Origin: Patescibacteria group bacterium
GTDB taxonomy: Bacteria > Patescibacteriota > Minisyncoccia > Portnoybacterales > UBA2143
Length of the DNA: 64,000 nucleotides
Reading direction: 5' to 3'
Assembly (NCBI GenBank): GCA_018830295.1
Contig: JAHJSM010000001.1
Coordinates: 386,203-450,202 of the forward strand
The notes below the pieces were generated by a model that did no database searches, had not been told where the DNA came from, and saw only the letters and a list, made by a program, of their open reading frames with translations. How positions within the stretch are numbered: the stretch's first letter is position 1; each line of letters opens with the position of its first letter. Positions 14,412 to 62,846 of the stretch are shown piece by piece. Made by a program: the position numbers and the translations under genes.

Positions 14412-14485
14412 GGGGACAGTCCCCCAGAGGGGACTGTCCCCTTGGGATTAAAATGGGGGCTGCCCCCGCAACGGGGGCAGCCCCC
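14412..14485. repeat. composite palindromic mini-element (type A pair plus type B pair)
   Basis: GGGGACAGTCCCCCAGAGGGGACTGTCCCC … GGGGGCTGCCCCCGCAACGGGGGCAGCCCCC. Confidence 0.9.
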
Positions 14486-15409: not shown

Positions 15410-15465
15410 GGGGACTGTCCCCTTGGGATTAAAACGGGGGCTGCCCCCGCAACGGGGGCAGCCCC
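15410..15465. repeat. composite palindromic mini-element, right flank of the cassette
   Basis: GGGGACTGTCCCCTTGGGATTAAAACGGGGGCTGCCCCCGCAACGGGGGCAGCCCCC. Near-identical to the left-flank copy, including the TTGGGATTAAAA linker. Confidence 0.9.
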
Positions 15466-15481
15466 CAAACCCTGCCTTAAA

Positions 15482-21697: not shown

Positions 21698-21773
21698 AAA
21701 ATTAGTATACCACCTCCACCCCCTCCCGCAAAGATTGACATTTCTTGAAAAATGGTTGTTTGGGGACTGAATT

Positions 21774-21853
21774 AAAAAGGTCAGACCTTTCAAAACGACA
21801 TTCTCGCGACTGCTTATTATTTAGTGACAAACTAATGGAAAGGTCTGACCTTT
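21774..21853. promoter_or_regulatory. two copies of the 15-bp palindrome AAAGGTCWGACCTTT in the divergent dnaE/ligA control region
   Basis: AAAGGTCAGACCTTT at ~21776-21790 and AAAGGTCTGACCTTT at ~21839-21853. The first copy extends as AAAGGTCAGACCTTTCAAAACGACATTCTCGCGAC. Confidence 0.5.
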
Positions 21854-24290: not shown

Positions 24291-25735
24291 ATCTCAATCA
24301 ACTTACAATTAAAGAAGCTCATCAAGGCCTTTTGAAGAAGGAATTTTCTTCGGTGGAACTGACCGAGGCGGTTTTGGGGCAGATTAAAAGGCGTAATCAA
24401 GAAATTAACGCCTATTTGGTCTTGACCGAAGAAATGGCGTTGACGCAAGCCAAAAAGGTGGACAAAATGATTGCTAATAACGAAGAAATTGGTCTTTTGG
24501 CGGGCATTCCTGCCGCGATTAAGGATAATATCATGATTGACGGCGTTCAGTGTACGGCCGCCTCAAAAATTTTGGAAAATTACATCGCGCCTTATGACGC
24601 GACAGTTATTAAAAAACTTAAAAAACAAGGCGCGGTTTTTGTTGGCAAAACAAATTTGGATGAATTCGCGATGGGGTCTTCAACCGAGAATTCGGCGTTT
24701 GGTCCGACTAAAAATCCGCGCGATTTGAGTCGTGTTCCAGGCGGAAGTTCGGGCGGGTCCGCGGCGGCTGTCGCCGATGACCAGTGTATTTACGCGTTGG
24801 GTTCTGACACAGGCGGTTCTATCCGCCAGCCAGCTTCTTTTTGCGGGGTGGCCGGATTAAAGCCGACTTATGGCTCGGTTTCTCGTTATGGGCTCATCGC
24901 TTTCGCTTCTTCTTTGGACCAAATCGGACCGCTCGCGAAAACGACCGAGGATTGTCAGATTATTTTTGAGGCGATTAATGGTAGAGACGAAATGGACGCG
25001 ACGAGTTTTAATTTCGGAAACCAAGTTTCCGCCGGAAACTCGGTTTCCAATCTTAAGATAGGAATTCCTAAGGAATATTTTGTGGCGGGGATTGACTCGG
25101 CAGTGGAGGAGGCGGTGAGGGGGGCAATTTCTCAATACGAGAAAATGGGATTTGAAATTGTGGAAATAAGTTTGCCTCACACCGAATACGCCTTGCCCGT
25201 TTACTATATTATTATGCCCGCCGAAGCGTCTTCTAATTTAGCCCGTTATGATGGAATTAAATACGGGCTTTCGGAAATTGACAAAGATTTATTGGGTGGA
25301 TACTTAAAAACGCGACAAAAGGGATTTGGCGATGAAGTCAAAAGAAGAATTATGCTCGGGACTTATGTTTTGTCGGCTGGCTATTACGACGCTTATTATC
25401 TTAAAGCGCAAAAAGTGAGAACTTTAATTAAGAACGACTTCTTGAAGGCGTTTGAAAAAGTAGATGTTTTAATCACGCCGACCGCGCCCACGCCCGCTTT
25501 CAAAATCGGGCAGAAAATAGCCGACCCTGTTTCAATGTATCTTTCGGATATTTACACAATTTCCGCGAACTTAGCTGGTTTACCCGCTATCTCTATTCCT
25601 ATTAAAAGCAACAGTCCTTTGCCGATAGGCATGCAAATTATAGGTAAACAATTTGGAGAAAATGATATTTTTAAAATAGCGCGCGCTTATGAGAATTTGG
25701 GGACAGTCCCCGCAACAGGGACTGTCCCCAAATAA
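24287..25735 (+). CDS. gatA: Asp/Glu-tRNA amidotransferase subunit A, C-terminus encoded by a palindromic element
   Basis: Amidase signature GGSSGGSAAAVA. The last residues …LGTVPATGTVPK come from the repeat at 25698-25729. Confidence 0.9.
25698..25729. repeat. type A palindromic element at the gatA 3' end
   Basis: GGGGACAGTCCCCGCAACAGGGACTGTCCCC. Confidence 0.85.
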
Positions 25736-26275: not shown

Positions 26276-26278
26276 ATG

Positions 26279-26352
26279 CGGGAGCGACCGGGCTCGAACC
26301 GGCGACCTTCTGCGTGACAAGCAGATGCTCTAACCAACTGAGCTACGCCCCC
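26279..26352 (-). tRNA. tRNA-Asp (GUC)
   Basis: Cloverleaf read from the minus strand: GGGGGCG acceptor, D-arm GCUCAGUUGGUUAGAGC, anticodon loop UUGUCAC, T-arm GGUUCGAGCC. CCA is not encoded. Confidence 0.9.
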
Positions 26353-26382
26353 ATTGTTTTAGACCCTTCGCAGGTTCTAAAG

Positions 26383-26454
26383 TAGCAGGAGTGGGGATCG
26401 AACCCACCATAGGTCGCTTATGAGACGACCTCAGACACCAGTCTGCTTCCTGCC
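26383..26454 (-). tRNA. tRNA with a CAU anticodon (elongator Met or Ile2-like) and an atypical anticodon arm
   Basis: Acceptor GGCAGGA/UCCUGCU, T-arm GUGGGUUCGAUCCCCAC. Nine nt separate the 5-bp anticodon stem halves (UCUCAUAAG). That implies a sixth U·G pair with a CUCAUAA loop, or an expanded loop. Confidence 0.65.
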
Positions 26455-26482: not shown

Positions 26483-26789
26483 TTGCGGGGGCAGGATTCG
26501 AACCTGCAACCTCAAGGTTCTTTGCGATTTCTATTTATAGAAGAAATCTGTATTAGCCATTTGTTTCCAAATGGAATGGACTATCCCATCATCTTTTTGC
26601 CTAAAAAAGATGTTCCCATTATAGTCTCTGAACCTTCCCTAATATGTATTAGGGCTTGGCTGCCGATTGCCGAGGGTTATATAACCCTGACGGTTTTCCA
26701 GCAATTTCGGGAATTTTCCACAAGATGTCGCCATCCTGCGCCACAATTTTATTTATGGGCCTCGCGAGCTGCCATTGCTCCACCCCGCG
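26483..26789 (-). tRNA. initiator tRNA-fMet (CAU) interrupted by a putative group I intron in the anticodon loop
   Basis: Exon 1 (26755-26789) is CGCGGGGUGGAGCAAUGGCAGCUCGCGAGGCCCAU. Exon 2 (26483-26519) is AACCUUGAGGUUGCAGGUUCGAAUCCUGCCCCCGCAA. The first 14 nt and the 3' strand CCCCGCA-A match E. coli tRNAfMet, including the C1·A72 mismatch. Confidence 0.75.
26520..26754 (-). other. putative 235-nt group I intron inside the tRNA-fMet gene
   Basis: 5' exon ends in U and can pair with an intron GUGG guide (a U·G P1). The intron ends in G. It contains a CAGAGACUAUAAUGGG stretch with the P7-region 'AGACUA' hallmark. No ORF. Confidence 0.6.
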
Positions 26790-28256: not shown

Positions 28257-30238
28257 TGAAGGTCTCATACAATTGGCTACAATCTTTTTTTGATAAAAAA
28301 CTTCCCAGTCCGGAAAAACTGGCGGATTTGCTGTCTTCGCATTCCTTTGAAACAGAGGTGATTGAACGGGTGGGTAGTGATTACGCTTTGGATGTGGATG
28401 TTTTGCCGAACCGGGCGCATGATTGCCTTGGGCATTTAGGTGTCGCGCGGGAAATTGGGGCGATCATAAATTCAAAACTCAAAATTCAAAACTCGCGCCG
28501 TCGCCAAAGCGGCTATGGCGCGTCGGCGACAAAATTAAAAATCAAAACGCAAAACAAAGATATTAAAGATTTTCTTAAAATTAAAGTCGGTGATAAAAAA
28601 CTTTGTCCGCGTTATACAGCTCGGATGGTGGTTGATGTTAAGGTTGGTCCTTCGCCAGAATGGATTCAAGAACGGCTCAAAGTTTGTGGTTTAAAGCCGA
28701 TTAACAACATCGTGGACACCGTTAATTATGTTATGTTGGAAACAGGACAGCCCATGCACGCTTTTGATTTTGACAAAATAGCGGGTGAGCCAAAAACTCT
28801 CATTATCCGCCGAGCCAAAAAGGGAGAGAAGATCATTTCTTTAGATAACGAAACATACGAATTAGACGAAAATATTTTAGTGATTGCGGACGAGAAGAGC
28901 CCTCTTTGTATTGCCGGCATGAAGGGCGGGAAGGACGCGGAAATTGATAAGGAGACAAAAAGAATTGTTTTGGAGGCAGCTAATTTTGATTCGCGAATTA
29001 TTCGGAAGGCGTTTAATCAATTAAAATTAAGAACGGACGCTTCGTGGCGTTTTGAAAACGGGCTTGACCCAAATTTAACCTCATCGGCGATGGATATGGC
29101 GGTTGCTTTAATTGATGGACAAATTCTTAAAGGAGTTGTTGATATTTATCCGAACAAAGTTAAGCCGAAGACGATAAAATTGGACGCGAAAAAAGTCAGG
29201 AGTTTGTTAGGAGTTAATATTTCAGATAAAGAAATAATTGCTATTTTGAAAAAGTTAAGTTTCGTTAAGATAGGGACAGTCCCTCTGAAAGAGGGACTGT
29301 CCCTATCAGTCACCGTTCCGACGGCCCGTTTGGACATTTCTATCCAAGAGGATTTAATTGAGGAGGTTGGACGTCTTTATGGATTTGAAAAAATTCCAAG
29401 CCGTTTGCCTTTGGCCGCTCTCATCCCTCCCAAGCGAAATGATGATTTGATTTACCAGAATAAAATTAAAGATATTTTAGTTAATCTTGGTTTTAGCGAG
29501 GCGCTTAATTATTCATTGATTGGCGACGCGGAAATTGAATTAGCCAATCCAATTAGCCAGGAGCAGAAATATTTGCGTCCTTCTTTAGCGCTTAATTTAT
29601 TAAAAAACATTGAAAGCAATAAAAGATATTTTAATGAAGTGAGGTTATTTGAAATTGGTCGGGTTTTTGAAAGGGATAACGACAAGGTAATTGAAAAGAA
29701 AAAATTGGGCGCCGCTTTGTTCCCATCTGACTTTTATCGCCTCAAAGGAATTATTGAGACATTATTGAATAAAATGCAAATTAGCGATGTTTGGTATGAG
29801 GATGAATTAGAAAGAGATGATTTAAAGAGAGCGAAAGTGATAGTGGGAAATGATTTATTAGGTTGGATTGGAGACAATATTTTCGAACTTGATTTTGAAA
29901 AAATAGTTGAATTGGCGACAGAAGAAAGAATTTATTCGCCTCCTTCAAAATATCCAGCCGTGGTCAGAGATGTCGCTTTGTTGGTTGAGCCGGGAACAAA
30001 GATAGTTGAAGTGATGAATTTAATTAATACAGCGGGCGGTTCGTTAATCAGCGATGTTGATTTGTTTGATATGTACGAAGGAGAGGAAATCCCAGATGGC
30101 AAAAAAAGTTTGGCTTTCCGCGTTATTTATCAAGCGGACGACCACACCTTAACCGACAAAGAAGTCAACGCCTTACAGGAGAAAGTTATGAAAGCGTTGG
30201 AAGATGAAGGAGGGTGGGAAGTGCGGAAACAGAAATAG
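28256..30238 (+). CDS. pheT: phenylalanyl-tRNA synthetase beta subunit, short form, with an in-frame palindromic-element insertion
   Basis: B3/4 and B5 domains, and the FDxY anticodon-binding C-terminus. The repeat at 29274-29304 is translated as …IGTVPLKEGLSLSVTVP…. Confidence 0.9.
   Translation: MKVSYNWLQSFFDKKLPSPEKLADLLSSHSFETEVIERVGSDYALDVDVLPNRAHDCLGHLGVAREIGAIINSKLKIQNSRRRQSGYGASATKLKIKTQNKDIKDFLKIKVGDKKLCPRYTARMVVDVKVGPSPEWIQERLKVCGLKPINNIVDTVNYVMLETGQPMHAFDFDKIAGEPKTLIIRRAKKGEKIISLDNETYELDENILVIADEKSPLCIAGMKGGKDAEIDKETKRIVLEAANFDSRIIRKAFNQLKLRTDASWRFENGLDPNLTSSAMDMAVALIDGQILKGVVDIYPNKVKPKTIKLDAKKVRSLLGVNISDKEIIAILKKLSFVKIGTVPLKEGLSLSVTVPTARLDISIQEDLIEEVGRLYGFEKIPSRLPLAALIPPKRNDDLIYQNKIKDILVNLGFSEALNYSLIGDAEIELANPISQEQKYLRPSLALNLLKNIESNKRYFNEVRLFEIGRVFERDNDKVIEKKKLGAALFPSDFYRLKGIIETLLNKMQISDVWYEDELERDDLKRAKVIVGNDLLGWIGDNIFELDFEKIVELATEERIYSPPSKYPAVVRDVALLVEPGTKIVEVMNLINTAGGSLISDVDLFDMYEGEEIPDGKKSLAFRVIYQADDHTLTDKEVNALQEKVMKALEDEGGWEVRKQK
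29274..29304. repeat. type A palindromic element inside pheT
   Basis: GGGACAGTCCCTCTGAAAGAGGGACTGTCCC. Confidence 0.85.
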
Positions 30239-30240
30239 TT

Positions 30241-33200
30241 ATGGTTAAAAAAAATAATAACAATTCAAATTACCAAGCAAAAGACATTTATGTCTTAGAA
30301 GGGCTTGATCCCGTGCGGCGGCGTCCAGGGATGTATATCGGTTCAACTGGTATTGAAGGTGTTCATCACCTTATTTGGGAAGTGGTTGACAACGCTTTAG
30401 ATGAAGCGATGGCTGGTTTTTGCGACGAAATAGAGGTTGTTCTTTTACCTGATAATAGGGTCAAAGTAACGGACAATGGGCGAGGGATTCCAGTTGACAA
30501 GCATCCGCAGACGAAAAAGTCGGCCTTGGAAACAGTCATGTGCACTCTTCACGCGGGCGGCAAATTCGGCGGGGAGTCATATAAAATCGCAGGCGGGTTG
30601 CACGGAGTCGGTGTTTCAGTTGTGAACGCGCTTTCCGTGATGACGCGGGCGGAAGTTTGCCGCGATGGTTTTTTATATGTTCAGGAATATGAACGGGGCA
30701 AGCCCAAAAAAGATGTTAAAAAAGAAGGCAAATGCGGCAGAAACGGAACGACGATCATTTTTGAACCAGACAAAGAAATTTTTCCAAAAATTGAATTTAA
30801 GTGGTCTAAGATATTAAAGCGATTGCGGCAGCAGGCGTATTTAACCAAGGGGATTAAAATAGTCGTCAAAGACGAAAGAAAAGAGCCGCGCAAAAGTTAT
30901 TCTTTCTATTTTGAGGGCGGAATTGTTTCTTATATTGGATATTTAAATCGCGGCGAAGAAACAAAACATAGTAATATTTTTTATGTTTCCGCGGAAAAGC
31001 AGGATGTGATGGTAGAGGCGGCTTTTCAATACACAGACGATATTCAAGGATATGAAGAAAGTTTTGCTAATAATATTTATACGGGCGAGGGCGGAATGCA
31101 TTTAACTGGCTTCAAAACGGCTTTAACAAGAACGCTTAACGATTACGCGCGGAAGAATGGTTTTTTAAAAGAGTCAGATGAAAATTTAAGCGGCGATGAT
31201 GTGAGAGAAGGGCTGACGGCGGTGATAAGCGTTAAATTAAGAGAGCCGCAATTTGAAGGGCAGACCAAGGCGAAGTTGGGCAATACCGAGGCGCGGACGG
31301 CGACTGACGCGATTGTTTCAGACGCGTTGGAAGAATTTTTAGAAAAGCATCCCCAAGATGCAAAGGAGATTATGGCGAAATGTCTCTTGGCGGCAAAAGC
31401 GCGCCGAGCGGCTAAAGCGGCGCGAGAAACGGTCATCCGAAAGGGCGTTTTGGAAGGCATGGCTTTGCCAGGGAAATTAGCCGACTGCTCCAATCGCAAC
31501 CCCGAAGATTCAGAAATCTACATAGTGGAAGGCGATTCCGCCGGAGGTTGTTTCGACGGAAAAACCAAAATTGCTTTAACTGATGGACGAAATTTAGATT
31601 TTATAGAATTAATTAAGGAGCAGAAAAGAGGAGAAAAGAATTATTGTTATACAATCAAAAAAGATGGCTTGATTGGTATTGAGCAAATTAGAAATGTCAG
31701 AAAAACAAAAAAGAACGCGGAGGTTATTAAAGTAATTCTTGATAACAACGAGGAAATTATTTGCACGCCCGACCACAAGTTTATGACAAGGGATGGTAAA
31801 TACAAACAAATAAAAGATTTAACTAATAAAGATTCTTTAATGCCGCTTTACAGAAAACTTTCTAAAAAAGAGAAGCGAATTACTATTGAAGGATATGAAA
31901 TGGTTTTAAGCCCAGAATTAAAAGACGGAAAGGAAAGATGGATTTTTACCCATCTTTTGGCTGATGAATATAATTTAAGAAATAAAATATATTCCAATAA
32001 AATCAATGTTCATAAGCATCATATTGATTTTAATAAATTAAATAATAATCCAGATAACATTAAGCAGATGGATAAAGATGAACACCTAAAACATCATTGT
32101 CGGATGTTGGAATTTACTATTCATCGAGAGGATGTAAAAGATAAAGTAAGAAAGATACATCAAACGACAGAATTTAGAGAAAAAATTAGAGCGACGATGA
32201 CTACTCCAGAAATGAAAAAAATGCTTAGTCGGAGAGCAAAAAAACAATGGCAAAATAAGGAATATAAGCAGTATATGGTTGAAAAGTTTTTGGAGTTTTA
32301 TAACAATTCACCTGATTACAGGGAAAAGAATAATAAATTATTGAATGATGTTCAAAAGAAGTATTGGGGCGATAAATCAAATCGACTCAAACAGGCGAGA
32401 CGCGTCAGAAAATATTTTAAATCAAATCCAGAGAAAAAAGAAGAACTTTCTTTGCTTGCCAAAAAGCAATGGTTAGACGCGGAGATGTTAACTTGGCGAA
32501 GTCAAAAAACAAAAGAGCAATGGACGGATGAATTTAGAAAAAAGCGGCAAAAGGCGTATAGCAAGACCTATTATAGACACACGATAGAATTTCTAAAAAA
32601 GGTCTATGAGAAATATGGTTCTTTTCGTGAATATGATTACGAAAGAACATTGATTAGAAATAATAATCTTTTGAAGTTCAATACTTTTTGCGCTCGGTTT
32701 TTTAACGGCGACAAAGAAGCGGTTTATGAGGCGGTGAAAAACTATAATCATAAAATCAAAAGGATAATTAAACTTAGAAAAAAAATTGATGTTTATGATT
32801 TGGAGGTTAAAGGGACCCATAATTTTGCTTTGGCTTCCGGCGTTTTTGTCCATAACAGCGCCAAACAGGGGAGGGATAGGTCTTTTCAGGCGATTTTGCC
32901 TTTGCGAGGGAAAATTCTTAATGTGGAAAAGGCGCGGTTGAGTCGAGCGCTTACTTCAACTGAAATTAAAACGCTTGTGATCGCGCTGGGGGCGGCGATT
33001 GCCGAGGAATTTGATATTGAAAAATTGCGATACCACCGCATTATTATTATGACGGACGCCGATGTGGACGGCTCGCATATCGCCACTTTGCTTTTGACTT
33101 TGTTCTTCCGATATTTCCCGCAAATTATAGACCGCGGTTATTTGTATGTCGCTCAACCGCCCCTTTATCGCCTGCAGAAAGGAAAAAGGGTTGAATATTG

Positions 33201-33468
33201 CTATACAATTGAAGACAGAGATGAAATTGTTTCTTCAATGGGCAATGAGGGCGTTAATATCCAACGATACAAGGGTTTGGGAGAAATGAATCCAAGCCAA
33301 TTATGGGAAACAACGATGGATCCCGCCAATCGGGTTATGAAACAAATTATGGTTGAAGACGCCAAAGAAGCGGACAAGATTTTTGATATTCTAATGGGAG
33401 ATGAAGTCGCGCCCAGAAAGAAATTTATCCAAACCCACGCGAAGAAAGCGAAAAATTTGGATATTTAA
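30241..33468 (+). CDS. gyrB: DNA gyrase subunit B interrupted by an intein
   Basis: GHKL ATPase, transducer and TOPRIM domains. A 436-aa intein splits EGDSAGG | SAKQGRDR. Confidence 0.9.
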   Translation: MVKKNNNNSNYQAKDIYVLEGLDPVRRRPGMYIGSTGIEGVHHLIWEVVDNALDEAMAGFCDEIEVVLLPDNRVKVTDNGRGIPVDKHPQTKKSALETVMCTLHAGGKFGGESYKIAGGLHGVGVSVVNALSVMTRAEVCRDGFLYVQEYERGKPKKDVKKEGKCGRNGTTIIFEPDKEIFPKIEFKWSKILKRLRQQAYLTKGIKIVVKDERKEPRKSYSFYFEGGIVSYIGYLNRGEETKHSNIFYVSAEKQDVMVEAAFQYTDDIQGYEESFANNIYTGEGGMHLTGFKTALTRTLNDYARKNGFLKESDENLSGDDVREGLTAVISVKLREPQFEGQTKAKLGNTEARTATDAIVSDALEEFLEKHPQDAKEIMAKCLLAAKARRAAKAARETVIRKGVLEGMALPGKLADCSNRNPEDSEIYIVEGDSAGGCFDGKTKIALTDGRNLDFIELIKEQKRGEKNYCYTIKKDGLIGIEQIRNVRKTKKNAEVIKVILDNNEEIICTPDHKFMTRDGKYKQIKDLTNKDSLMPLYRKLSKKEKRITIEGYEMVLSPELKDGKERWIFTHLLADEYNLRNKIYSNKINVHKHHIDFNKLNNNPDNIKQMDKDEHLKHHCRMLEFTIHREDVKDKVRKIHQTTEFREKIRATMTTPEMKKMLSRRAKKQWQNKEYKQYMVEKFLEFYNNSPDYREKNNKLLNDVQKKYWGDKSNRLKQARRVRKYFKSNPEKKEELSLLAKKQWLDAEMLTWRSQKTKEQWTDEFRKKRQKAYSKTYYRHTIEFLKKVYEKYGSFREYDYERTLIRNNNLLKFNTFCARFFNGDKEAVYEAVKNYNHKIKRIIKLRKKIDVYDLEVKGTHNFALASGVFVHNSAKQGRDRSFQAILPLRGKILNVEKARLSRALTSTEIKTLVIALGAAIAEEFDIEKLRYHRIIIMTDADVDGSHIATLLLTLFFRYFPQIIDRGYLYVAQPPLYRLQKGKRVEYCYTIEDRDEIVSSMGNEGVNIQRYKGLGEMNPSQLWETTMDPANRVMKQIMVEDAKEADKIFDILMGDEVAPRKKFIQTHAKKAKNLDI
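31549..32856 (+). mobile_element. GyrB intein with an HNH-type homing endonuclease
   Basis: Starts CFDGKTKIALTDG and ends …FVHN, followed by S+1. Internal HKHHIDFNKLNNNPDNIKQMDKDEHLKHH (HNH motif). Confidence 0.8.
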
Positions 33469-34326: not shown

Positions 34327-34749
34327 ATGGCAAAAGCAATAAAAACAATTATTAAACTTCAAATTCCGGCCGGGCAAGCTAATCCGGCGCCTCCGGTTGG
34401 ACCGGCTTTAGGTCAGCATGGTTTGAATATTCAAGATTTTTGTCTTAAATTCAACGAAGCGACCAAAGAAATGGCGGGCGATATTATTCCTGTTGAAATA
34501 ACTGTCTATGAAGACAGGACTTATGATTTCAAGTTAAAAACTCCGCCTGCGTCTGATTTGCTCAAAAAGGCGGCTGGAGTCCAAAAGGGTTCGGGAGATC
34601 CTCTTAAAACTAAAGTTGGAAAAGTGACTAAAGAGCAAATCCGCGAAATCGCCGAAAAGAAAATGGTTGACCTTAACGCGTATTCCATCGAACAAGCCGA
34701 AAAAATTATAGAAGGCACAGCGAGAAGTATGGGAATAGAGGTGAAGTAA
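34327..34749 (+). CDS. rplK: 50S ribosomal protein L11
   Basis: [32 protein letters not shown]… canonical L11. Confidence 0.95.
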
Positions 34750-34756
34750 TGTCTTT

Positions 34757-34787
34757 GGGGACAGTCCCCGCAACGGGGACTGTCCCC
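34757..34787. repeat. type A palindromic element
   Basis: GGGGACAGTCCCCGCAACGGGGACTGTCCCC, between rplK and the dCMP deaminase gene. Confidence 0.9.
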
Positions 34788-34833
34788 AAATCATTTGTTT
34801 TTTAACAATTTAGGAAATAAGGAGGGAAATATA

Positions 34834-35433
34834 ATGGATAAAAGACCGAGTTGGGATGAAATATTTATGTTTCAAGCGATAAGTTGCGCTGTTCGCCACA
34901 GTTGCCTTAAAAGACCTATTGGAGCCGTCTTAATTAAAGACAGGCGAATTATTGGAACGGGATATAATGGAGCGGCGCCTGGGATTACTAGTTGTAGGGA
35001 GTTGGGTTATTGTTATTATGACAAATTAGCTTTTGAAGAAGTAAAAACTAATGGCGGCGATATAAAAAAAACCAGAGAAATTTTTAAAATTTACTGCCAA
35101 GCGGTTCACGCAGAAGTTAATTCGCTTAGTCGTTGCGCGAGAAATGAAGCGCAGGGATCAACACTCTTTATTACTAGTTATCCTTGTCCGAAATGCGTTC
35201 GAGATGTAGTTGTTGTTCACGGGATAAAAGAATTGCGAGTTTGGAAGGATTATCTTCAAAATCCACATTTAACTATTGATGAAAGAAGAGCAAGCGAACA
35301 TAAACTTCTTGAGACAGGCGTTTCCGTTAAGTTCATTAAATTAACAGAGGAAAGAATTATGGAGATATCTGTCTATATGGCAAAGCAAGTAGGCGAGAGA
35401 ACTGATTATAAATTCAAAGAAAAGGAGGTGTAG
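34834..35433 (+). CDS. dCMP (deoxycytidylate) deaminase, zinc-dependent
   Basis: HAEVN…PCPKC cytidine/dCMP deaminase zinc motifs. Strong GGAGG Shine-Dalgarno before the ATG at 34834. Confidence 0.8.
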   Translation: MDKRPSWDEIFMFQAISCAVRHSCLKRPIGAVLIKDRRIIGTGYNGAAPGITSCRELGYCYYDKLAFEEVKTNGGDIKKTREIFKIYCQAVHAEVNSLSRCARNEAQGSTLFITSYPCPKCVRDVVVVHGIKELRVWKDYLQNPHLTIDERRASEHKLLETGVSVKFIKLTEERIMEISVYMAKQVGERTDYKFKEKEV

Positions 35434-35436
35434 GAT

Positions 35437-36213
35437 ATGAATAGAGTTGCTTTTTTAGAAGCGACATCGCTGAATGACGCATGGTTTCAGGCGCTTAATA
35501 AAATTATGACAGAAGGAAGGAAGTATCTCATAACCAAAGGAAGTTACGAAGGTATCTATCGTTCCGGTCTTCCTATAGTTATTGACATTAAACATCCAGG
35601 TGTTAGACCATTGGCGCCGATTATGCCTGAAGGGTCAAATATACCTCCTCCGACAACACAAGATGATATAGAAGAATATTTGACATACCTCATGACTCCG
35701 GTTAAACAGCCAAATGAGCATTATACTTACGGAGAGGATTTACATTGGCAAATTGAGTGGGTGATACGGCATTTCAAGGAATGCGGCTATGGAAATAATC
35801 ATTGCTATATGACTGTTGGACGACCAGAAACACTGTATTTTTACGATTTAGGCGTTAATTATAACGAAAGTGTTTCTGTAAAAGAACGCGTCACAGGCGG
35901 GATTATTGAAGATTATCGAAGAAGCAATGAGTGGAATGGAAAAAGCAATCCCAGTTCTCAGTGTTTACGGGGAATTGATACATGGATTGATGATAATAAA
36001 CTTCATTTTTGGGTTTATTTTCGTTCATGGGACCACTGGGGCGGCTTTCCAGTTAATTTAGGAGGCATCCAATTACTTAAGGAATATATGTCTTCCGAAA
36101 TTGGCGTGGGTGACGGATGTATGGTTGTTTCTTCAAAAGACCTTCATGTTTATGAACATACATGGGTGGTGGCTTTAATGAGAATTGGAGGACTCGTCGG
36201 AAAGGAGGGATAA
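35437..36213 (+). CDS. divergent thymidylate-synthase-family protein (ThyA-like)
   Basis: ThyA-like C-terminal region (…QCLRGIDTW…YFRSWDHWGGFPVNL…, compare PCHAFFQFY…YQRSCDVFLGLPFN). The His that follows the catalytic Cys is not conserved. Confidence 0.55.
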   Translation: MNRVAFLEATSLNDAWFQALNKIMTEGRKYLITKGSYEGIYRSGLPIVIDIKHPGVRPLAPIMPEGSNIPPPTTQDDIEEYLTYLMTPVKQPNEHYTYGEDLHWQIEWVIRHFKECGYGNNHCYMTVGRPETLYFYDLGVNYNESVSVKERVTGGIIEDYRRSNEWNGKSNPSSQCLRGIDTWIDDNKLHFWVYFRSWDHWGGFPVNLGGIQLLKEYMSSEIGVGDGCMVVSSKDLHVYEHTWVVALMRIGGLVGKEG

Positions 36214-36214
36214 A

Positions 36215-36484
36215 ATGGAACAATGTTTACATTGCGCAGGTTACCTCTTTTTTAAACCATTGCCGGATGAAACTTTTGCTTGTTGTCAGAAACATGATGA
36301 AAATATAAAAGACATTAATCTGAAAACAGGAGCTAGTCCGGCTATTGAAAAGCATGGATTAAAAGGGGTTCTTTGCAAAAAGTTCAAGCCAGGAAAAAGT
36401 ATTTGTTGTACTTCCGAGGTGACTCCTTTTTTACTTCATCCAGCTAGAGTGGAAGGCGAAAAGGAATTATCAGCGTTAATGTGA
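36215..36484 (+). CDS. small Cys-rich hypothetical protein
   Basis: 89 aa with CxxC…CC…C…CC. Shine-Dalgarno AAAGGAGGG. A hairpin plus T-tract lies downstream. Confidence 0.4.
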   Translation: MEQCLHCAGYLFFKPLPDETFACCQKHDENIKDINLKTGASPAIEKHGLKGVLCKKFKPGKSICCTSEVTPFLLHPARVEGEKELSALM

Positions 36485-36649
36485 TTAGTAAAAAAAACAA
36501 AGTCCTATCGGGATTAAATCCTAATGGGGCTTTATTTTTTGGTAATTTTACTGTAATATCAAGAGTAGTGAAATTTATTTTACGCCTGGAGCACATTAGA
36601 TTAGCATAAAATAAAGCATGCTATTTTAATCGCGACAGTCGCAGTTTTT

Positions 36650-37189
36650 ATGATTTTAGGTATAGACAAATTACATAAATTAGTCAAAGACAAAAAGTTG
36701 GTGGAGGGTCTTTGCCAGCGCGAGTTGGAAAATCCAGAGGGCGCCGGTTTTGATTTGCGATTAGATGAAGTTTATGAAATTAGCGGAAAATCATTTTTAG
36801 GGATTGAAGAGAGAAAGACGCCTGATACAAAACTTTTAGCTAAATTTAATGAAGATAAAAAAACAAGTTTTGTTTTCAAACCTGGTAATTATTATTTAGT
36901 AAAAACAATTGAGAAAGTTAATACTCCAGATGACATATTAATACTTTTTCGTCCGCGAACAACTATTTTTCGTTCGGGGATGATGTTATTAACAGGCAAT
37001 GCTTCCCCTGGTTATTGTGGTGAATTAAATTTTGGTTTTGTTAATCTCGGTCCAGTTGATGTGGAAATTGAACTTGGGGCAAGAGTGGTACACGCTATGT
37101 TTTACAAAGTTGATGGCAAGACGCACTTATACCGTGGGCAATGGCAAGGAGGCAGGGTGACTACTGATAAAAAAGAAAAACAAGTTTAA
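36650..37189 (+). CDS. dCTP deaminase / dUTPase-family protein
   Basis: Homology to the Dcd jelly-roll region (…FRPRTTIFRSGMMLLTGNASPGYCGEL…). Confidence 0.7.
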   Translation: MILGIDKLHKLVKDKKLVEGLCQRELENPEGAGFDLRLDEVYEISGKSFLGIEERKTPDTKLLAKFNEDKKTSFVFKPGNYYLVKTIEKVNTPDDILILFRPRTTIFRSGMMLLTGNASPGYCGELNFGFVNLGPVDVEIELGARVVHAMFYKVDGKTHLYRGQWQGGRVTTDKKEKQV

Positions 37190-37206
37190 GTATTGTCGTT
37201 TTATAA

Positions 37207-38436
37207 ATGTTTATCAAAACAGATCCTAAAATTAGCAAGTTGATTGAATTGGAGTTTGCCCGTCATCAGGATGGGCTTAATTTGATTGCGGCGGATAATT
37301 ATGCCAGTCCGGCGGTAAGGAGGGCAGTGGGGAGTATTTTGAGCGCGCGATACGCGGAGGGTTATCCGAAAAAAAGATATTATTCGGGGCAGAGGTTCAT
37401 TGACCAAATTGAGGAAGCGGCTATTTCGCGCGCCAAAAAATTGTTCGGCGCGAATTTTGCTAATGTTCAGCCGCACTCCGGTTCGCAAGCGAATCAAGCG
37501 GTCTATTTCGCTTTGCTTAAGCCAGGAGACATAATTTTGTCTATGCGGATTGACCAAGGTGGGCATTTGTCGCATGGTTCGGAAGTTAATTTTTCTGGCC
37601 AATTATATAAGTGTGTTTTTTATGGCGTTGATAAAAAAAGCGGAAGAGTCGTATTTGAAGAAGTTGCGAAAATAGCGAGGAAAGAAAAGCCGAAACTAAT
37701 CATCGCCGGCGCTTCCAGTTATCCGCGGCAAATTGATTTTTCTAAATTCGGTGCGATCGCCAAAGAAGTTGGCGCTTATTTAATGGCTGATATCGCTCAC
37801 ATTGCTGGTTTAGTCGCGGCTGGGCTTCATCCGAGCCCTTTTCCGCATTGCGATCTTGCGACGATGACGACGCATAAAACCTTGCGGGGCGCGCGCGGGG
37901 GGATAATTCTTTCAAATAAAAAAGAAATCGCTGAAAAAATAGACAAAGCGGTTTTTCCCGGCCTGCAAGGCGGGCCCTTGCAAAACGAAATTGCAGGGAA
38001 AGCGGTCGCGCTTAAAGAGGCGGGGCAAAAAACTTTTATTAGTTATCAAAAACAGGTCTTAAAAAACAGCCAAACTATGGCCGAGACACTTTTGAGTGAA
38101 GGACTGGACTTGGTTACCGGCGGCACGGATAATCATTTGGTTTTGGTTGATTTGACGCGGCTTGGCGTTTCAGGGAAGAAAGTGCAAGAAGCGCTTGAAG
38201 AAGTAAACATCTATGTCAATCGCAATGCAATCCCTTATGATATTCGTTCAAAATGGGAAACATCAGGGATTAGAATTGGAACTCCCGCGGTGACGACTAA
38301 GGGATTGAAAGAAAAAGAAATTAAACAAGTCGGCGTTTGGATTGCTCAAATTATTAAAGATATTAATAGCAATAAAATTAGAAGAGAAATTAAAAAAGAA
38401 GTGATTAAAATGGCGAGACGGTTTCCAATTATGTAA
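37207..38436 (+). CDS. glyA: serine hydroxymethyltransferase
   Basis: PLP-lysine region TTHKTLRGARGG and overall SHMT homology. Confidence 0.95.
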   Translation: MFIKTDPKISKLIELEFARHQDGLNLIAADNYASPAVRRAVGSILSARYAEGYPKKRYYSGQRFIDQIEEAAISRAKKLFGANFANVQPHSGSQANQAVYFALLKPGDIILSMRIDQGGHLSHGSEVNFSGQLYKCVFYGVDKKSGRVVFEEVAKIARKEKPKLIIAGASSYPRQIDFSKFGAIAKEVGAYLMADIAHIAGLVAAGLHPSPFPHCDLATMTTHKTLRGARGGIILSNKKEIAEKIDKAVFPGLQGGPLQNEIAGKAVALKEAGQKTFISYQKQVLKNSQTMAETLLSEGLDLVTGGTDNHLVLVDLTRLGVSGKKVQEALEEVNIYVNRNAIPYDIRSKWETSGIRIGTPAVTTKGLKEKEIKQVGVWIAQIIKDINSNKIRREIKKEVIKMARRFPIM

Positions 38437-38441
38437 AAGCA

Positions 38442-39206
38442 ATGAAGATTATTGACGGAAAAAAAATAGCCGATAGTATTTTGGCTCGGCTTAAAAAAGA
38501 GATTGAGCGAAGAAGAATTAACCCCTGCTTGGCGGTTATTTTAGTTGGAGATAATCCATCTTCTGTTTTATATATCAAAGCGAAAGAAAAAGCGGCGGAG
38601 AAAATTGGGGTTAGAATTAAGAAGTTTTTTTTGCCAGCGAATTCATCTGAAAACGAAATTTTAGAAGTAATTAAAAAATTAAATAATAATTTGGAGATTA
38701 ATGGTATTTTAGTTCAAATGCCTTTGCCAAAAGGAATTAGCCCTGATAGAATTATTAAAGAGATTAGTCCTGAAAAAGATGTTGATGGGCTTCTGCCTAA
38801 AAGCGGATTTGATTCGCCTTTTATTCTCTCCATCTGGGAAGCGCTTCAAGCGACTAAAGAAAATTTGGAAAATAAAAAGATAATCGCTTTGGTTAATTCA
38901 GAAATTTTTGGCGAACGAATGAGCATGTTTTTTAAACAAAGAGAGATAGAAATAATGATTGGGGGGCTGCCCCCAAAATTAGAGGCGGATATTTTAATTA
39001 CCGCGCTTGGCAAACCAGGAGTTATTAAGGGAAATATGGTTAAGCAGGGAGTTATCTTAATAGACGGAGGAATTAGTCGAGTGGACGGGAGGACGGCGGG
39101 TGATATTGACGAGGAAAGCGTCAAGCAAAAAGCAAAATGGCTTTCGCCAGTTCCTGGCGGTTTGGGCCCGCTCACAGTCGCTTTTTTATTAAAAAATTTA
39201 ATTTAA
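38442..39206 (+). CDS. folD: methylenetetrahydrofolate dehydrogenase/cyclohydrolase (short form)
   Basis: FolD homology (…YIKAKEK…, …PVPGGLGPLTVA…). Contains a single GGGGGGCTGCCCCC half-repeat. Confidence 0.85.
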   Translation: MKIIDGKKIADSILARLKKEIERRRINPCLAVILVGDNPSSVLYIKAKEKAAEKIGVRIKKFFLPANSSENEILEVIKKLNNNLEINGILVQMPLPKGISPDRIIKEISPEKDVDGLLPKSGFDSPFILSIWEALQATKENLENKKIIALVNSEIFGERMSMFFKQREIEIMIGGLPPKLEADILITALGKPGVIKGNMVKQGVILIDGGISRVDGRTAGDIDEESVKQKAKWLSPVPGGLGPLTVAFLLKNLI

Positions 39207-39210
39207 ACTC

Positions 39211-40668
39211 ATGAAATATCAGTCGGTGATCGGGTTAGAAATTCATAGCGCGTTAAAGACGGAGAGCAAAATGTTCTGCGGCTGTTTTAACGATTTGGAC
39301 GAAACAAAACCTAATACTAATGTTTGTCCTATTTGTATGGGACATCCCGGAACTTTGCCCGTTATCAACCAAAAGGCGGTTGATTGCGTCATTAAGACGG
39401 CGCTGGCTTTGAATTGTCGGGTTCCGAAATCAGCCAAGTTTGACCGCAAAAATTATTTTTATCCAGACATTCCCAAGGGGTATCAGATTTCCCAATATGA
39501 TATGCCATTGTCGTCTGGCGGTTTTTTGGAGATAGACGGGAAAAAAGTAAAGATTACGCGCATCCATTTAGAGGAAGATACTGGTCGTCTTGTTCATTCC
39601 GCCAACGATAACTCTTCTTTGGTTGATTTCAATCGGGCGGGCATACCTCTGATGGAATTAGTGACTGAACCAGATATTGTTTCAGGGGAAGAAGCGCGCC
39701 GTTTTTGCGAAGAACTGCAACTAATTTTGCGTTATCTTTTAGTTTCCGAAGCAAATATGGAAAAGGGGCAAATGCGATGCGAAGTTAATATTTCTTTGAA
39801 AAACGACGGCGAAGAAAACGGGACGAAAGTGGAAATTAAAAATTTAAATTCTTTTCGCGCTGTTGAAAGAGCGGTTGATTATGAAATTAAGAGGCAAGCC
39901 GGATTACTTGACGCGGGAGAAAAGATTATTCAGGAAACAAGAGGGTGGAACGAGAACAAGCAAAAAACTTTTTCGCAAAGGACAAAAGAAACGGCGAAGG
40001 ACTATCGCTATTTCCCCGAGCCGGATTTGCCGCCCTTAACCCAATTAGCGGAGATAAAAAAACGAGTTCAAGAAGAAATTCCAGAATTGCCCCAAGCGAA
40101 AAGAGAAAGATTTGAGAGGGAGTATAATTTGATCAAAGACGATGTTTATATTTTAACCGAGGATAAATTTTTCGCGGATTATTTTGAACAGGTTGTTTCT
40201 GAACTTAAAACATGGCTGAAAATTAAAGAGATTAGCGAAAAACAGCCGTTGGTAAAATTAACGGCGAATTATCTTTTAACCGAATTAAGAAAACTTTTGG
40301 CTGATAATGGAGTTAAAATAGGCGGATGTAAAATTAGCCCGGAGAATTTCGCCGAATTTGTCACTTTAATTCATCAAAAGGAAATTTCCAGTTCGGCCGC
40401 GCAGACCGTTTTGAAAGAGATGTTTAAAACAGGGGAGGATCCCTCTAATATTGTGGAAACGAAAGAGTTAAAACAAGTAAGCGACGAGGGAGATTTGTTA
40501 AAAATAGTTAAGCGAGTTATGTCGGAGAATTCTAAATCAGTTGAGGATTATCGCTCGGGTAAAGAAAATGCTCTCCAATTTTTGGTCGGCAAAGTCATGG
40601 CGGCAAGCAAAGGCCAAGCCAATCCGCAAGTGGCCAGGGAAATATTAAAGAAGGAAATTTCCAATTAG
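39211..40668 (+). CDS. gatB: Asp/Glu-tRNA amidotransferase subunit B
   Basis: MKYQSVIGLEIHSALKTESKMFCGC… GatB N-terminus and a C-terminal YqeY-like tail. Confidence 0.9.
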   Translation: MKYQSVIGLEIHSALKTESKMFCGCFNDLDETKPNTNVCPICMGHPGTLPVINQKAVDCVIKTALALNCRVPKSAKFDRKNYFYPDIPKGYQISQYDMPLSSGGFLEIDGKKVKITRIHLEEDTGRLVHSANDNSSLVDFNRAGIPLMELVTEPDIVSGEEARRFCEELQLILRYLLVSEANMEKGQMRCEVNISLKNDGEENGTKVEIKNLNSFRAVERAVDYEIKRQAGLLDAGEKIIQETRGWNENKQKTFSQRTKETAKDYRYFPEPDLPPLTQLAEIKKRVQEEIPELPQAKRERFEREYNLIKDDVYILTEDKFFADYFEQVVSELKTWLKIKEISEKQPLVKLTANYLLTELRKLLADNGVKIGGCKISPENFAEFVTLIHQKEISSSAAQTVLKEMFKTGEDPSNIVETKELKQVSDEGDLLKIVKRVMSENSKSVEDYRSGKENALQFLVGKVMAASKGQANPQVAREILKKEISN

Positions 40669-41749: not shown

Positions 41750-41808
41750 GGGGGCTGCCCCCGTTGCGGGGGCAGCCCCCAAATTTAGCCGCGGCGGGGG
41801 CAGCCCCC
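41750..41808. repeat. type B palindromic element plus an extra half
   Basis: GGGGGCTGCCCCCGTTGCGGGGGCAGCCCCC … GCGGCGGGGGCAGCCCCC. Confidence 0.9.
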
Positions 41809-49381: not shown

Positions 49382-49412
49382 GGGGGCTGCCCCCGCGGCG
49401 GGGGCAGCCCCC
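49382..49412. repeat. type B palindromic element
   Basis: GGGGGCTGCCCCCGCGGCGGGGGCAGCCCCC, upstream of rnpB. Confidence 0.9.
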
Positions 49413-49874: not shown

Positions 49875-49960
49875 GGGGGCTGCCCCCGTTGCGGGGGCAG
49901 CCCCCATTCTGTGGGGTGAGAAAGACGGGAGCAGTCCCCGCTGCGAGGGCTGCCCCCCTA
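49875..49960. repeat. type B palindromic element plus a degenerate hybrid copy
   Basis: GGGGGCTGCCCCCGTTGCGGGGGCAGCCCCC … GGGAGCAGTCCCCGCTGCGAGGGCTGCCCCCC. Confidence 0.85.
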
Positions 49961-56056: not shown

Positions 56057-56091
56057 GGGGACAGTCCCCATTCTGAATGGGGACTGTCCCC
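56057..56091. repeat. type A palindromic element
   Basis: GGGGACAGTCCCCATTCTGAATGGGGACTGTCCCC. Confidence 0.9.
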
Positions 56092-62800: not shown

Positions 62801-62817
62801 CACGAATTAGCAATTTA

Positions 62818-62846
62818 GGGACAGTCCCCAAGAGGGGACTGTCCCC
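62818..62846. repeat. type A palindromic element
   Basis: GGGACAGTCCCCAAGAGGGGACTGTCCCC. Confidence 0.9.

Follow-up and report, generated by a model that had tools for sequence, protein, structure and literature searches.

The methanogen-type clade of the ThyA family is regarded in the literature as the archaeal thymidylate synthase (TS) (PMC9931769; PMC9012536), and no purified enzyme of this clade appears in that literature to have been shown to complete the reaction, a point that counts against the interpretation we favor below. Among TS-fold enzymes, Asn at the position of E. coli N177 goes with dUMP as the substrate and Asp with dCMP, and Asn at the position of D169 marks the flavin 5-hydroxy-dCMP synthases (PMC13326640).

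The window analyzed here is a 64,000-nucleotide stretch of a Patescibacteria (CPR) genome, in which an island of six genes lies between rplK and gatB. The six genes are where the first-pass annotation had placed them, and all ORFs are on the forward strand (Table 1). We conclude that the island is probably the organism's own dTMP-synthesis module with an archaeal-type TS, and that the cluster most likely serves CPR housekeeping dTMP synthesis rather than being a phage-style DNA-modification system.

Table 1. Features of the island and its two edges, with positions in the window.
Feature	Position	Strand	Basis
rplK (ribosomal protein L11)	34327..34749	+	Pfam L11 N- and C-terminal domains
Perfect 17-bp hairpin, then T-run	34754..34790	+	Terminator scan, sequence
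dCMP deaminase (dCMP to dUMP)	34834..35433	+	PF00383, phrog_174, zinc motifs
Archaeal-type (methanogen-type-related) TS homologue (TS-like), 258 aa	35437..36213	+	TIGR03283, PF00303, residues, AF2, slot
Four-Cys protein (Cys4), 89 aa	36215..36484	+	ATG at 36215; invariant C4, C7, C24, C54
Hairpin and U-run 3' of the Cys4 gene	36499..36540	+	RNA fold, sequence
DCD-superfamily protein, archaeal-dUTPase branch (DCD-like), 179 aa	36650..37189	+	PF22769 71 bits
glyA, serine hydroxymethyltransferase	37207..38436	+	PF00464 492 bits; NF000586 587 bits (above cutoff)
folD, bifunctional methylene-THF dehydrogenase/cyclohydrolase	38442..39206	+	PF00763 and PF02882
gatB	39211..40668	+	Synteny; GatB_N/GatB_Yqey domains in orthologous loci

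The setting of the island is a housekeeping one that is conserved across lineages. rplK, directly 5' of the island, and gatB form the upstream and downstream edges of a frame, secE-nusG-rplK-[thymidylate module]-gatB, which also occurs in loci L001-L013 and L086-L091 and in many of L092-L171. The composition of the island is that of the remaining window, as for native DNA. rplA, rplJ, rplL and rpoB had been reported not to follow rplK here, and indeed none of them was matched among the ORFs scanned with Pfam. The scan took in the ORFs of 110 aa or more between ~15.5 kb and the window end and only two of the ORFs upstream of that, where the ribosomal-protein operon region occupies the first ~15 kb; no ORF of rpoB length occurs anywhere in the window. 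We found no modification, kinase or glycosyltransferase genes near the island, and no FolA homologue in the window or in any locus with the TS-like gene, 67 non-CPR loci included.

The palindromic element described earlier after rplK is a perfect hairpin followed by a T-run, and is likely the intrinsic terminator of secE-nusG-rplK. It is also one copy of a dispersed palindrome family, for which the window yields 50 strand-hits where 0.42 would be expected. Folding of positions 36482-36652 gave -43.5 kcal/mol (z = -4.1), and the hairpin 3' of the Cys4 gene, which had no match to an Rfam family, is probably a terminator dividing two transcription units. The two terminator-like hairpins would thereby split the island into a first unit of dCMP deaminase, TS-like and Cys4 genes, and a second of the DCD-like gene, glyA and folD, followed by gatB.

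Among curated models, only TIGR03283 (thy_syn_methano), which we take to be the MJ0757/MTH774 type, matches the TS-like protein and its relatives over the full length, at 74 bits for this protein against a cutoff of 174.55; the score against PF00303 was 24.5 bits (cutoff 24.3). The family comprises 1812 homologues, mostly from Patescibacteria and many of them called thymidylate synthase by their sources. Some members, in Desulfobacterota and Chloroflexota, are short forms set in housekeeping contexts; the protein examined here represents the long form of CPR, in which ~45 aa are inserted at about residues 136-172. The sequence does contain the motifs noted previously, QCLRG (175-179), FRSWD (195-199) and GFPVNL (203-208), and C176, R196, S197, D199, N207, H237 and Y239 correspond to E. 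coli C146, R166, S167, D169, N177, H207 and Y209. The Asn at the N177 position indicates dUMP as the substrate and excludes dCMP, and the Asp at the D169 position indicates that the protein is not a flavin 5-hydroxy-dCMP synthase.

The water-excluding L143 of E. coli aligns with Ser173 (short forms have Asp there, like T4 gp42 and SPO1 gp29), the R126/R127 pair is absent from its colinear position, and the protein stops 19 residues past Tyr239, whereas E. coli ThyA continues for 55, among them the tail closing over folate. The AF2 model has a TS fold (pLDDT 91.6), and its closest structural neighbor is a flavin-dependent TS-fold enzyme. With hhalign, the SPO1 dUMP hydroxymethylase (95.6%, score 64.8) and E. 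coli ThyA (95.4%, score 61.4) came out alike and T4 gp42 reached 25% probability; identity to SPO1 gp29 over the C-terminal core is 32%. PHROG matches were weak and confined to the C-terminal ~65 residues, and a tblastn search of 50,697 phage genomes gave no relatives. The profile and structure comparison proposed in the first-pass annotation did not separate ThyA from the hydroxymethylases.

Across 65 related loci, the synthase slot of the module holds TS-like, ThyX, canonical ThyA (usually with FolA) or a fused variant, and 64 of the 65 carry a single synthase type; in the remaining locus, L010, TS-like and a canonical ThyX stand side by side. Within the frame rplK-...-DCD-like-...-gatB, the slot holds TS-like in 21 loci, ThyX in 27 (Pfam Thy1 at 65-105 bits) and canonical ThyA in 16 (40-46% identity to E. 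coli). folA adjoins canonical ThyA in 12 of these 16 and TS-like in none. In close relatives, whose DCD-like proteins are 83-88% identical, dCMP deaminase-ThyX-Cys4-DCD-like replaces dCMP deaminase-TS-like-Cys4-DCD-like. In 17 related loci the deaminase and TS-like genes form a pair, and P0026 carries a natural fusion of the two. Slot exchange, the single synthase type and the deaminase fusion support the archaeal-type TS proposed earlier as one of two readings, as do the full-length methanogen-type match, the Asn and the Asp, and they do not support hypermodification.

The cysteine-rich 89-aa ORF noted previously encodes a real, conserved four-Cys protein that is restricted to the lineage. 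Its translation is coupled to that of the synthase, one fusion of the two occurs, and in other loci it also follows single-domain ThyX. It is missing from 8 TS-like loci without an adjacent DCD-like gene, from 2 with one, and at every short-form locus. Cys4 is likely a metal-binding partner of thymidylate synthase.

In the CPR thymidylate module the DCD-like protein is the one constant component (70-93% identity across CPR), and in other lineages its gene adjoins bona fide Dcd, ThyX and Tmk. It scored 71 bits against PRK02253 (below 130) and 69 bits against TIGR02274 (below 92.8). In alignments to PDB structures it has Gly129 at the catalytic Glu position of Dcd and, in motif III, Ser119 where all solved relatives carry Asp; across 90 CPR loci position 119 is S68/A13/P6/Q2/H1, with the Asp in 0/90. 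Lacking both residues, it is ruled out as a dCTP deaminase, so that of its previous assignment the DCD superfamily stands and the activity does not. The argument that two routes to dUMP would be redundant fails for the same reason. The protein presumably has a putative activity in dUTP/dUMP handling.

The dCMP deaminase ORF opens at a TTG (34795) upstream of the first ATG (34834), and its product carries HAE and PCxxC zinc motifs (PF00383, 56.7 bits; phrog_174 dCMP deaminase, 112 bits). FolD NCBIfam models gave ~200 bits for the folD product, under their equivalog cutoffs. In the mechanism we propose, the deaminase would convert salvaged dCMP to dUMP. The TS-like enzyme, as a long-form CPR member of the methanogen-type ThyA clade, would attack C6 of dUMP with Cys176 while Asn207 holds the uracil, and would take the one-carbon unit from 5,10-methylene-THF. 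The product would be dTMP rather than another C5 adduct, with DHF or THF as the folate product. Cys4 would be produced in stoichiometric amounts with the synthase, to which it probably binds. GlyA would regenerate methylene-THF from serine, FolD would join methylene-THF to the formyl pool, and the DCD-like protein may bind nucleotides of the dUTP type, presumably to supply or protect the pool of dUMP.

Some observations count against a dTMP module with an archaeal-type TS, namely Ser173 at the L143 position, the missing folate tail and R126/R127 pair, the hhalign tie with the SPO1 dUMP hydroxymethylase, the lack of folA and the double synthase in L010. The missing tail, which positions folate for hydride transfer, is consistent with dTMP made by a non-canonical route, in which an external reductant rather than H4folate would reduce the methylene, with a flavin as the electron donor, as for ThyX and the TS-fold AfhB, or with the electrons passed on by the four-Cys partner. 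THF, not DHF, would then be released, so no DHFR would be needed, and the distribution of folA around the TS-like genes is that seen for ThyX. The flavin-dependent structural neighbor and the association of Cys4 with both synthases point the same way. However, the folate-pterin ligand Asp169 is retained, unlike in the D169N flavin enzymes, no flavin-binding motif was identified in the TS-like protein, and Cys4 cannot be obligatory because many TS-like loci, including all short forms, are without it. folA may also lie elsewhere in the genome, as it is present in 54.8% of CPR genomes (PMC11974145). We consider this route unlikely.

The other reading put forward earlier, a dCMP or dUMP hydroxymethylase serving DNA hypermodification, fails for dCMP, which the Asn excludes. 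Narrowed to dUMP, it would give the lineage DNA with 5-hydroxymethyluracil or a derivative. The polar residue at the L143 position, the likeness to SPO1 gp29, the open C-terminus and the lack of folA nearby (hydroxymethylases release THF) would fit, as would the ThyX in L010. Against this, ThyX or ThyA fills the slot elsewhere, nearly always as the single type, the nearest curated relatives are methanogen TS, the short forms and the island itself sit in housekeeping contexts, and phage relatives were not found. Modification genes, such as those for an hm-dUMP kinase, a glycosyltransferase or dTTP exclusion, are also absent from the module, and we know of no cellular bacterium in which hmU fully replaces T. 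We therefore judge a dUMP hydroxymethylase very improbable. That the enzyme acts on another pyrimidine outside DNA precursor supply, such as UMP/CMP or an RNA base, is hardly credible, given its fusion and pairing with a deoxynucleotide enzyme, the retained Tyr239 and His237, which in ThyA read the deoxyribose 3'-OH, and module partners that include Dcd, Tmk and a dUTPase-like protein.

Compared with known systems, the archaeal-type TS we favor is closest to the methanogen-type enzymes. Its relatives align to positions 2-199 of the 201 in TIGR03283, and the two have in common a compact TS fold, in which the C-terminal extension of bacterial enzymes is missing, and the catalytic Cys/Arg/Ser/Asp/Asn/His/Tyr set. 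It differs in its sub-cutoff score, its bacterial host, the insert ahead of the catalytic Cys, the Cys4 mini-protein alongside, and neighbors that are folate genes (glyA/folD) rather than an H4MPT context. Canonical ThyA (E. coli; PF00303, TIGR03284) is more distant, at 14-18% identity, with PCHAF in place of QCLRG and a C-terminal region of 45-55 residues that the TS-like protein lacks; in CPR it is usually beside folA, and TS-like never is. ThyX occupies the identical module slot in sister CPR lineages, in some with dCMP deaminase 5' and the same Cys4 and DCD-like genes 3', but has an unrelated fold and a different mechanism, and is analogous in function without being homologous.

The DCD-like protein aligns over its full length with archaeal DCD-type dUTPases (PRK02253; PDB 9w59, 2yzj, 9ln0). 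It shares with them motifs I, II and IV, the C-terminal Y-x-G-x-[YW]-Q-G and the absence of the deaminase Glu, and differs in the substituted motif-III Asp and in scores under both the dUTPase and Dcd cutoffs. Finally, the TS-like protein has Asn at N177 where T4 gp42 (dCMP hydroxymethylase), AfhB-type enzymes and MilA have Asp, and Asp at D169 where the AfhB-type flavin enzymes (HY126 AfhB / RB69 gp48) have Asn. Unlike the phage C5-modifying TS homologues, SPO1 gp29 included, it stands in a cellular, housekeeping and syntenic context.

Six co-oriented ORFs lie directly downstream of rplK, and all of them were located within 34757-39206 as the first-pass annotation had described. The island is flanked by secE, nusG and rplK upstream and by gatB, miaA and miaB downstream, and its GC content and skew are those of the remaining window. 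We refer to the ThyA-like protein as TS-like, to the four-cysteine protein encoded directly 3' of it as Cys4, and to the DCD-superfamily protein as DCD-like. The palindromic element noticed after rplK forms a hairpin of 17 perfectly matched base pairs followed by a T-run (34754-34790), and a second hairpin with a U-run is found 3' of the Cys4 gene (~36499-36540). These two hairpins appear to divide the island into two transcription units, one of deaminase, TS-like and Cys4, and one of DCD-like, glyA, folD and gatB. The ATG of Cys4 is preceded by AGGAGG, and Rfam gave no match to a riboswitch or leader between 33400 and 41900.

Features of the island and of the surrounding window (window coordinates)
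Feature	Position	Strand	Basis or description
dCMP deaminase	34795/34834-35433	+	PF00383, 56.7 bits
TS-like, 258 aa	35437-36213	+	TIGR03283 best NCBIfam model; PF00303 marginal
Cys4, Cys-rich, 89 aa	36215-36484	+	ORF; ATG 2 nt past the TS-like stop
DCD-like, DCD superfamily, 179 aa	36650-37189	+	full-length alignment to archaeal DCD-type dUTPases
glyA	37207-38436	+	Pfam/NCBIfam models
folD	38442-39206	+	Pfam/NCBIfam models
gyrB	30214-33468	+	~430-aa insert, residues ~446-872, intein-like by position
dnaE	17261-21793	-	intein with LAGLIDADG domain
Group I intron	26557-26764	-	Rfam RF00028, 87.7 bits
tRNA-Met	26382-26454		beside the group I intron
tRNA-Asp	26278-26352		beside the group I intron
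Palindrome copies	14412-14485, 15410-15466, 17067-17099, 25699-25729, 29272-29304, 34754-34790, 41750-41808, 49382-49412, 49875-49939, 54907-54937, 56057-56091, 61095-61129, 62817-62846		dispersed GC-rich family

The hairpin after rplK belongs to a dispersed GC-rich palindrome family of the form GGGGACAGTCCCC..GGGGACTGTCCCC with a GGGGGCAGCCCCC variant. Over the whole window this family gave 50 strand-hits with at most 2 mismatches, against 0.42 expected. Most copies are situated at gene ends like terminators, and some are within ORFs (thrS, pheT, lepA). Other elements were also observed outside the island. The gyrB insert is missing in the related loci L003 and L004 and present in L011 and L097, and the group I intron possibly marks an intron-bearing tRNA gene.

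rplK is normally followed by rplA. The observation that rplA, rplJ, rplL and rpoB do not follow rplK here held true, and none was found among the Pfam-scanned ORFs, a scan that covered the window from ~15.5 kb onward. In all related loci as well, rplK is without rplA, rplJ, rplL or rpoB behind it. OD1-L1, a large Parcubacteria group, is defined by the absence of L1, and the absence of these four genes is consistent with L1-less Parcubacteria of this kind (PMC5220378). A missing L1 may explain why a thymidylate module, and not rplA, follows rplK, with membership of the window genome in OD1-L1 being putative.

Homologues of TS-like numbered 1812. The close ones belong to Patescibacteria, and the source annotation of several reads thymidylate synthase. 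The NCBI entry KJ756_02015 ("Patescibacteria group bacterium", on a 480-kb contig) is the identical protein with a shorter called start. PF00303 scored 24.5 bits against a cutoff of 24.3, with the match confined to the C-terminal 58 residues (184-241), and the canonical ThyA model TIGR03284 scored 20.3 bits, below its cutoff of 108.35. The best NCBIfam model was that of the methanogen-type thymidylate synthase (TS), the equivalog TIGR03283, at 74.4 bits and below its cutoff of 174.55. Relatives of TS-like scored 42-96 bits against TIGR03283, all below the cutoff, yet they aligned over positions 2-199 of the 201 in the model; such matches were obtained for ~215-aa relatives from Desulfobacterota and Chloroflexota and for other CPR forms. 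These whole-length, sub-cutoff matches across bacterial relatives set the family beside the methanogen enzyme as its bacterial sister group. Searches of the PDB by single sequence and by profile returned canonical ThyA chains only and no archaeal-type structure. Our literature searches found nothing on MJ0757 and no report of a complete reaction with a purified TS of the methanogen-type clade, and reviews describe archaeal TS biochemistry as scarcely characterised (PMC9931769, PMC9012536).

We numbered TS-like against the E. coli ThyA sequence. C176, R196, S197, D199, N207, H237 and Y239 correspond to the catalytic C146 and the dUMP ligands R166, S167, D169, N177, H207 and Y209, and C176, R196, S197 and N207 are invariant among 58 family members. 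On the folate side, Ser173 aligns with the hydrophobic L143, and Asp is found there in the short, ~215-aa homologues. The C-terminus extends 19 residues past Y239, compared with 55 in E. coli ThyA, and the folate-closing region is absent. Manual alignment revealed no candidate Arg pair (R126'/R127') in the colinear NHCYMT segment. In the hhalign alignment "SNEWN" pairs with E. coli "SAWN", which would place R126/R127; we rejected this placement, since the short forms lack that segment and still run colinear with E. coli.

Within the TS fold, Asn at the N177 position denotes dUMP and not dCMP, the L143 position is bulky in TS and acidic in hydroxymethylases, and D169N is the signature of the flavin 5-hydroxy-dCMP synthases AfhB and RB69 gp48 (PMC13326640). 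Enzymes of the AfhB/RB69 gp48 type carry D169N and N177D, whereas TS-like has Asp199 and Asn207 and so lacks this signature; they were nevertheless its best structural matches. Judged by sequence, the Asp at the D169 position argues against a flavin 5-hydroxy-dCMP synthase. One long TS-like subgroup from Desulfobacterota (P0102-P0108, loci L014-L024; Desulfacinum, Desulfobacterales) reads FRSWN, which is the reported D169N signature, and has lost the H207 and Y209 equivalents, although Asn177 and the Cys are kept; the activity of this subgroup is probably a different one.

The first-pass annotation had also offered a dUMP or dCMP hydroxymethylase serving DNA hypermodification. T4 gp42, a dCMP hydroxymethylase, has Asp at the N177 position, whereas Asn207 is invariant in the TS-like family, and hhalign gave only 25% probability for this pair. 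TS-like matched E. coli ThyA with 95.4% probability (score 61) and the dUMP hydroxymethylase SPO1 gp29 with 95.6% (score 65; 32% identity over the catalytic core), and its AF2 model had a pLDDT of 91.6. The comparison placed the protein in the TS fold and its residues exclude dCMP hydroxymethylase as a predicted activity, but ThyA and gp29 scored equally; thus homology and structure fix the fold, not the chemistry. We regard production of hmU by TS-like as very unlikely. The polar Ser173 (Asp in the short forms) at a position that is acidic in hydroxymethylases and the parity of gp29 with ThyA speak for it; gp29 has Asp at the L143 position, and both proteins keep the Asn at N177. Against it, tblastn detected no TS-like relatives in phage genomes, PHROG matches were weak, no modification genes were found near TS-like, and the gene occupies a housekeeping slot. 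With these results, we conclude that the hypermodification reading is not supported.

Gene context separates the readings further. We surveyed 13 CPR genome loci around TS-like, 80 metagenome loci around DCD-like and several loci retrieved by exact protein look-up, and counted slot occupants after removing near-identical loci. The frame secE-nusG-rplK-module-gatB recurs throughout. The synthase slot is occupied by TS-like in 21 loci, by double-length or single-domain ThyX in 27 (Pfam Thy1, 65-105 bits), and by canonical ThyA in 16 (40-46% identity to E. coli). In L092, L096 and L098 the order is dCMP deaminase, ThyX, Cys4, DCD-like and gatB, with DCD-like 83-88% identical to that of the window; this matches the window's arrangement but for ThyX at the TS-like position. 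A bona fide Dcd (FDPGW...E) is usual in ThyX modules, and Tmk is frequent there; TS-like modules contain dCMP deaminase, and P0026 is a natural deaminase::TS-like fusion. Two synthase types share a locus only in L010, where TS-like is beside ThyX. ThyA and ThyX, which are non-homologous, are known to replace each other (PMC9931769). The exchange of synthases in one slot is the strongest argument that the TS-like gene supplies thymidylate, and it is the main evidence for the other reading of the first-pass annotation: an archaeal-type thymidylate synthase is the best explanation of TS-like, and we consider this prediction probably correct.

Two of these loci have unusual architectures. In L010:971-3760 (CPR), dCMP deaminase and TS-like are followed consecutively by a ThyX of canonical type (204 aa, RHR...S...S.RY motif) and by Tmk. 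On a 624-kb contig, L157:4932-6545 encodes a fourth occupant of the slot, a 537-aa protein with an uncharacterised N-terminal domain and a divergent TS-like domain (RRPC...IRSND...AHIY), located between a true Dcd and a DCD-like gene.

Searching 1.8 billion representatives with a profile of Cys4 returned only 27 small relatives, plus spurious repeat proteins. L172:914-1870 (P0024), on a single 3.8-kb contig, is a natural fusion that joins TS-like to residues 1-59 of Cys4.

The DCD-like gene had been taken for a dCTP deaminase, redundant with dCMP deaminase as a route to dUMP. We found Gly129 in place of the catalytic Glu (E. coli E138), and the TIGR02274 score was 69 bits, below 92.8. Across 90 loci this position is Gly in 82 and Ala in 8, so DCD-like is not a dCTP deaminase and the redundancy argument fails. 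The motif-III position 119, where dUTPases have their catalytic Asp, is Ser in the window protein and Ser, Ala, Pro, Gln or His, never Asp, across the 90 loci. The score against PRK02253 was 71.1 bits, below 130, and the protein falls outside the trimeric/DCD-type dUTPases as defined by PRK02253 and PF00692; it is not a conventional dUTPase either. The remaining nucleotide-binding motifs are conserved, identity across CPR is 70-93%, comparable to that of the flanking rplK and nusG, and bona fide Dcd proteins adjoin DCD-like in other lineages. With every type of synthase, DCD-like stays in the module as its constant member, and this links it to putative dUMP/dUTP handling. The top-ranked literature matches for dUTPase/Dcd and CPR made no mention of a dUTPase or dCTP deaminase.

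The dCMP deaminase exceeded the PF00383 threshold of 25 bits and has "VHAEVN" and "YPCPKC", the HAE and PCxxC zinc motifs; against the ComEB equivalog it scored 75, below 219. It is ~30% identical to the deaminases of close relatives, compared with 70-88% for flanking genes, and is longer (199-212 aa versus 153-180 aa). Its best-scoring family, at 112 bits, is the phage dCMP deaminase phrog_174, and the gene may be a replacement.

We searched for folA by tblastn with E. coli FolA. DHFR adjoins canonical ThyA in 12 of the 16 loci, and no FolA was detected anywhere in the window, in TS-like loci including 67 non-CPR loci, or in any ThyX locus; folA was also absent among the window ORFs scanned against Pfam (~15.5 kb onward). 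The folA pattern of TS-like loci resembles that of ThyX. The folA of TS-like genomes may lie elsewhere, because 54.8% of CPR genomes have this gene (PMC11974145). Together, the ThyX-like folA pattern, the absent tail and the structural proximity to a flavin enzyme leave room for a non-DHF mechanism. The methanogen-type/CPR branch, here with a fused or coupled Cys4, may not be a classical DHF-releasing TS: it would make dTMP with an external reductant and release THF, or make 5-hydroxymethyl-dUMP for a cellular genome. As a separate matter, DCD-like, which lacks the motif-III Asp, would then be a new kind of nucleotide-handling protein and not a dUTPase. We consider this proposal rather unlikely.

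Short Desulfobacterota forms (L083-L085, L022-L080) have an rlmN-like gene ~38 bp downstream in 36 loci, followed by hisG/hisI; in one lineage the gene directly upstream encodes an NMO-type FMN oxidoreductase. We considered a conserved partner of the short forms, either a flavin reductase or a DHFR. An NMO-type gene lies beside P0116, but only rlmN and hisG/hisI are conserved neighbours across 67 loci, and the idea was dropped.

Taken together, we conclude that the island is a housekeeping module typical of its lineage, in which a variant synthase is joined by two uncharacterised partners. It illustrates how CPR bacteria with reduced genomes obtain dTMP from a compact module beside rplK, and the repeated swapping of the synthase among four non-identical solutions is a clear natural gene displacement at a fixed locus. 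If THF-releasing synthesis with an external reductant were true, it would be a third, DHFR-independent mechanistic class, and a DHFR-independent or hmU-producing enzyme would change genome-based prediction of thymidylate metabolism and antifolate sensitivity. As the predicted archaeal-type synthase, TS-like differs from the methanogen-type enzyme in size and host: the latter is a compact protein of ~200 aa in methanoarchaea, whereas TS-like has 258 aa, belongs to a Patescibacteria host and, like the other CPR forms, carries an insert of ~45 aa before the catalytic Cys.
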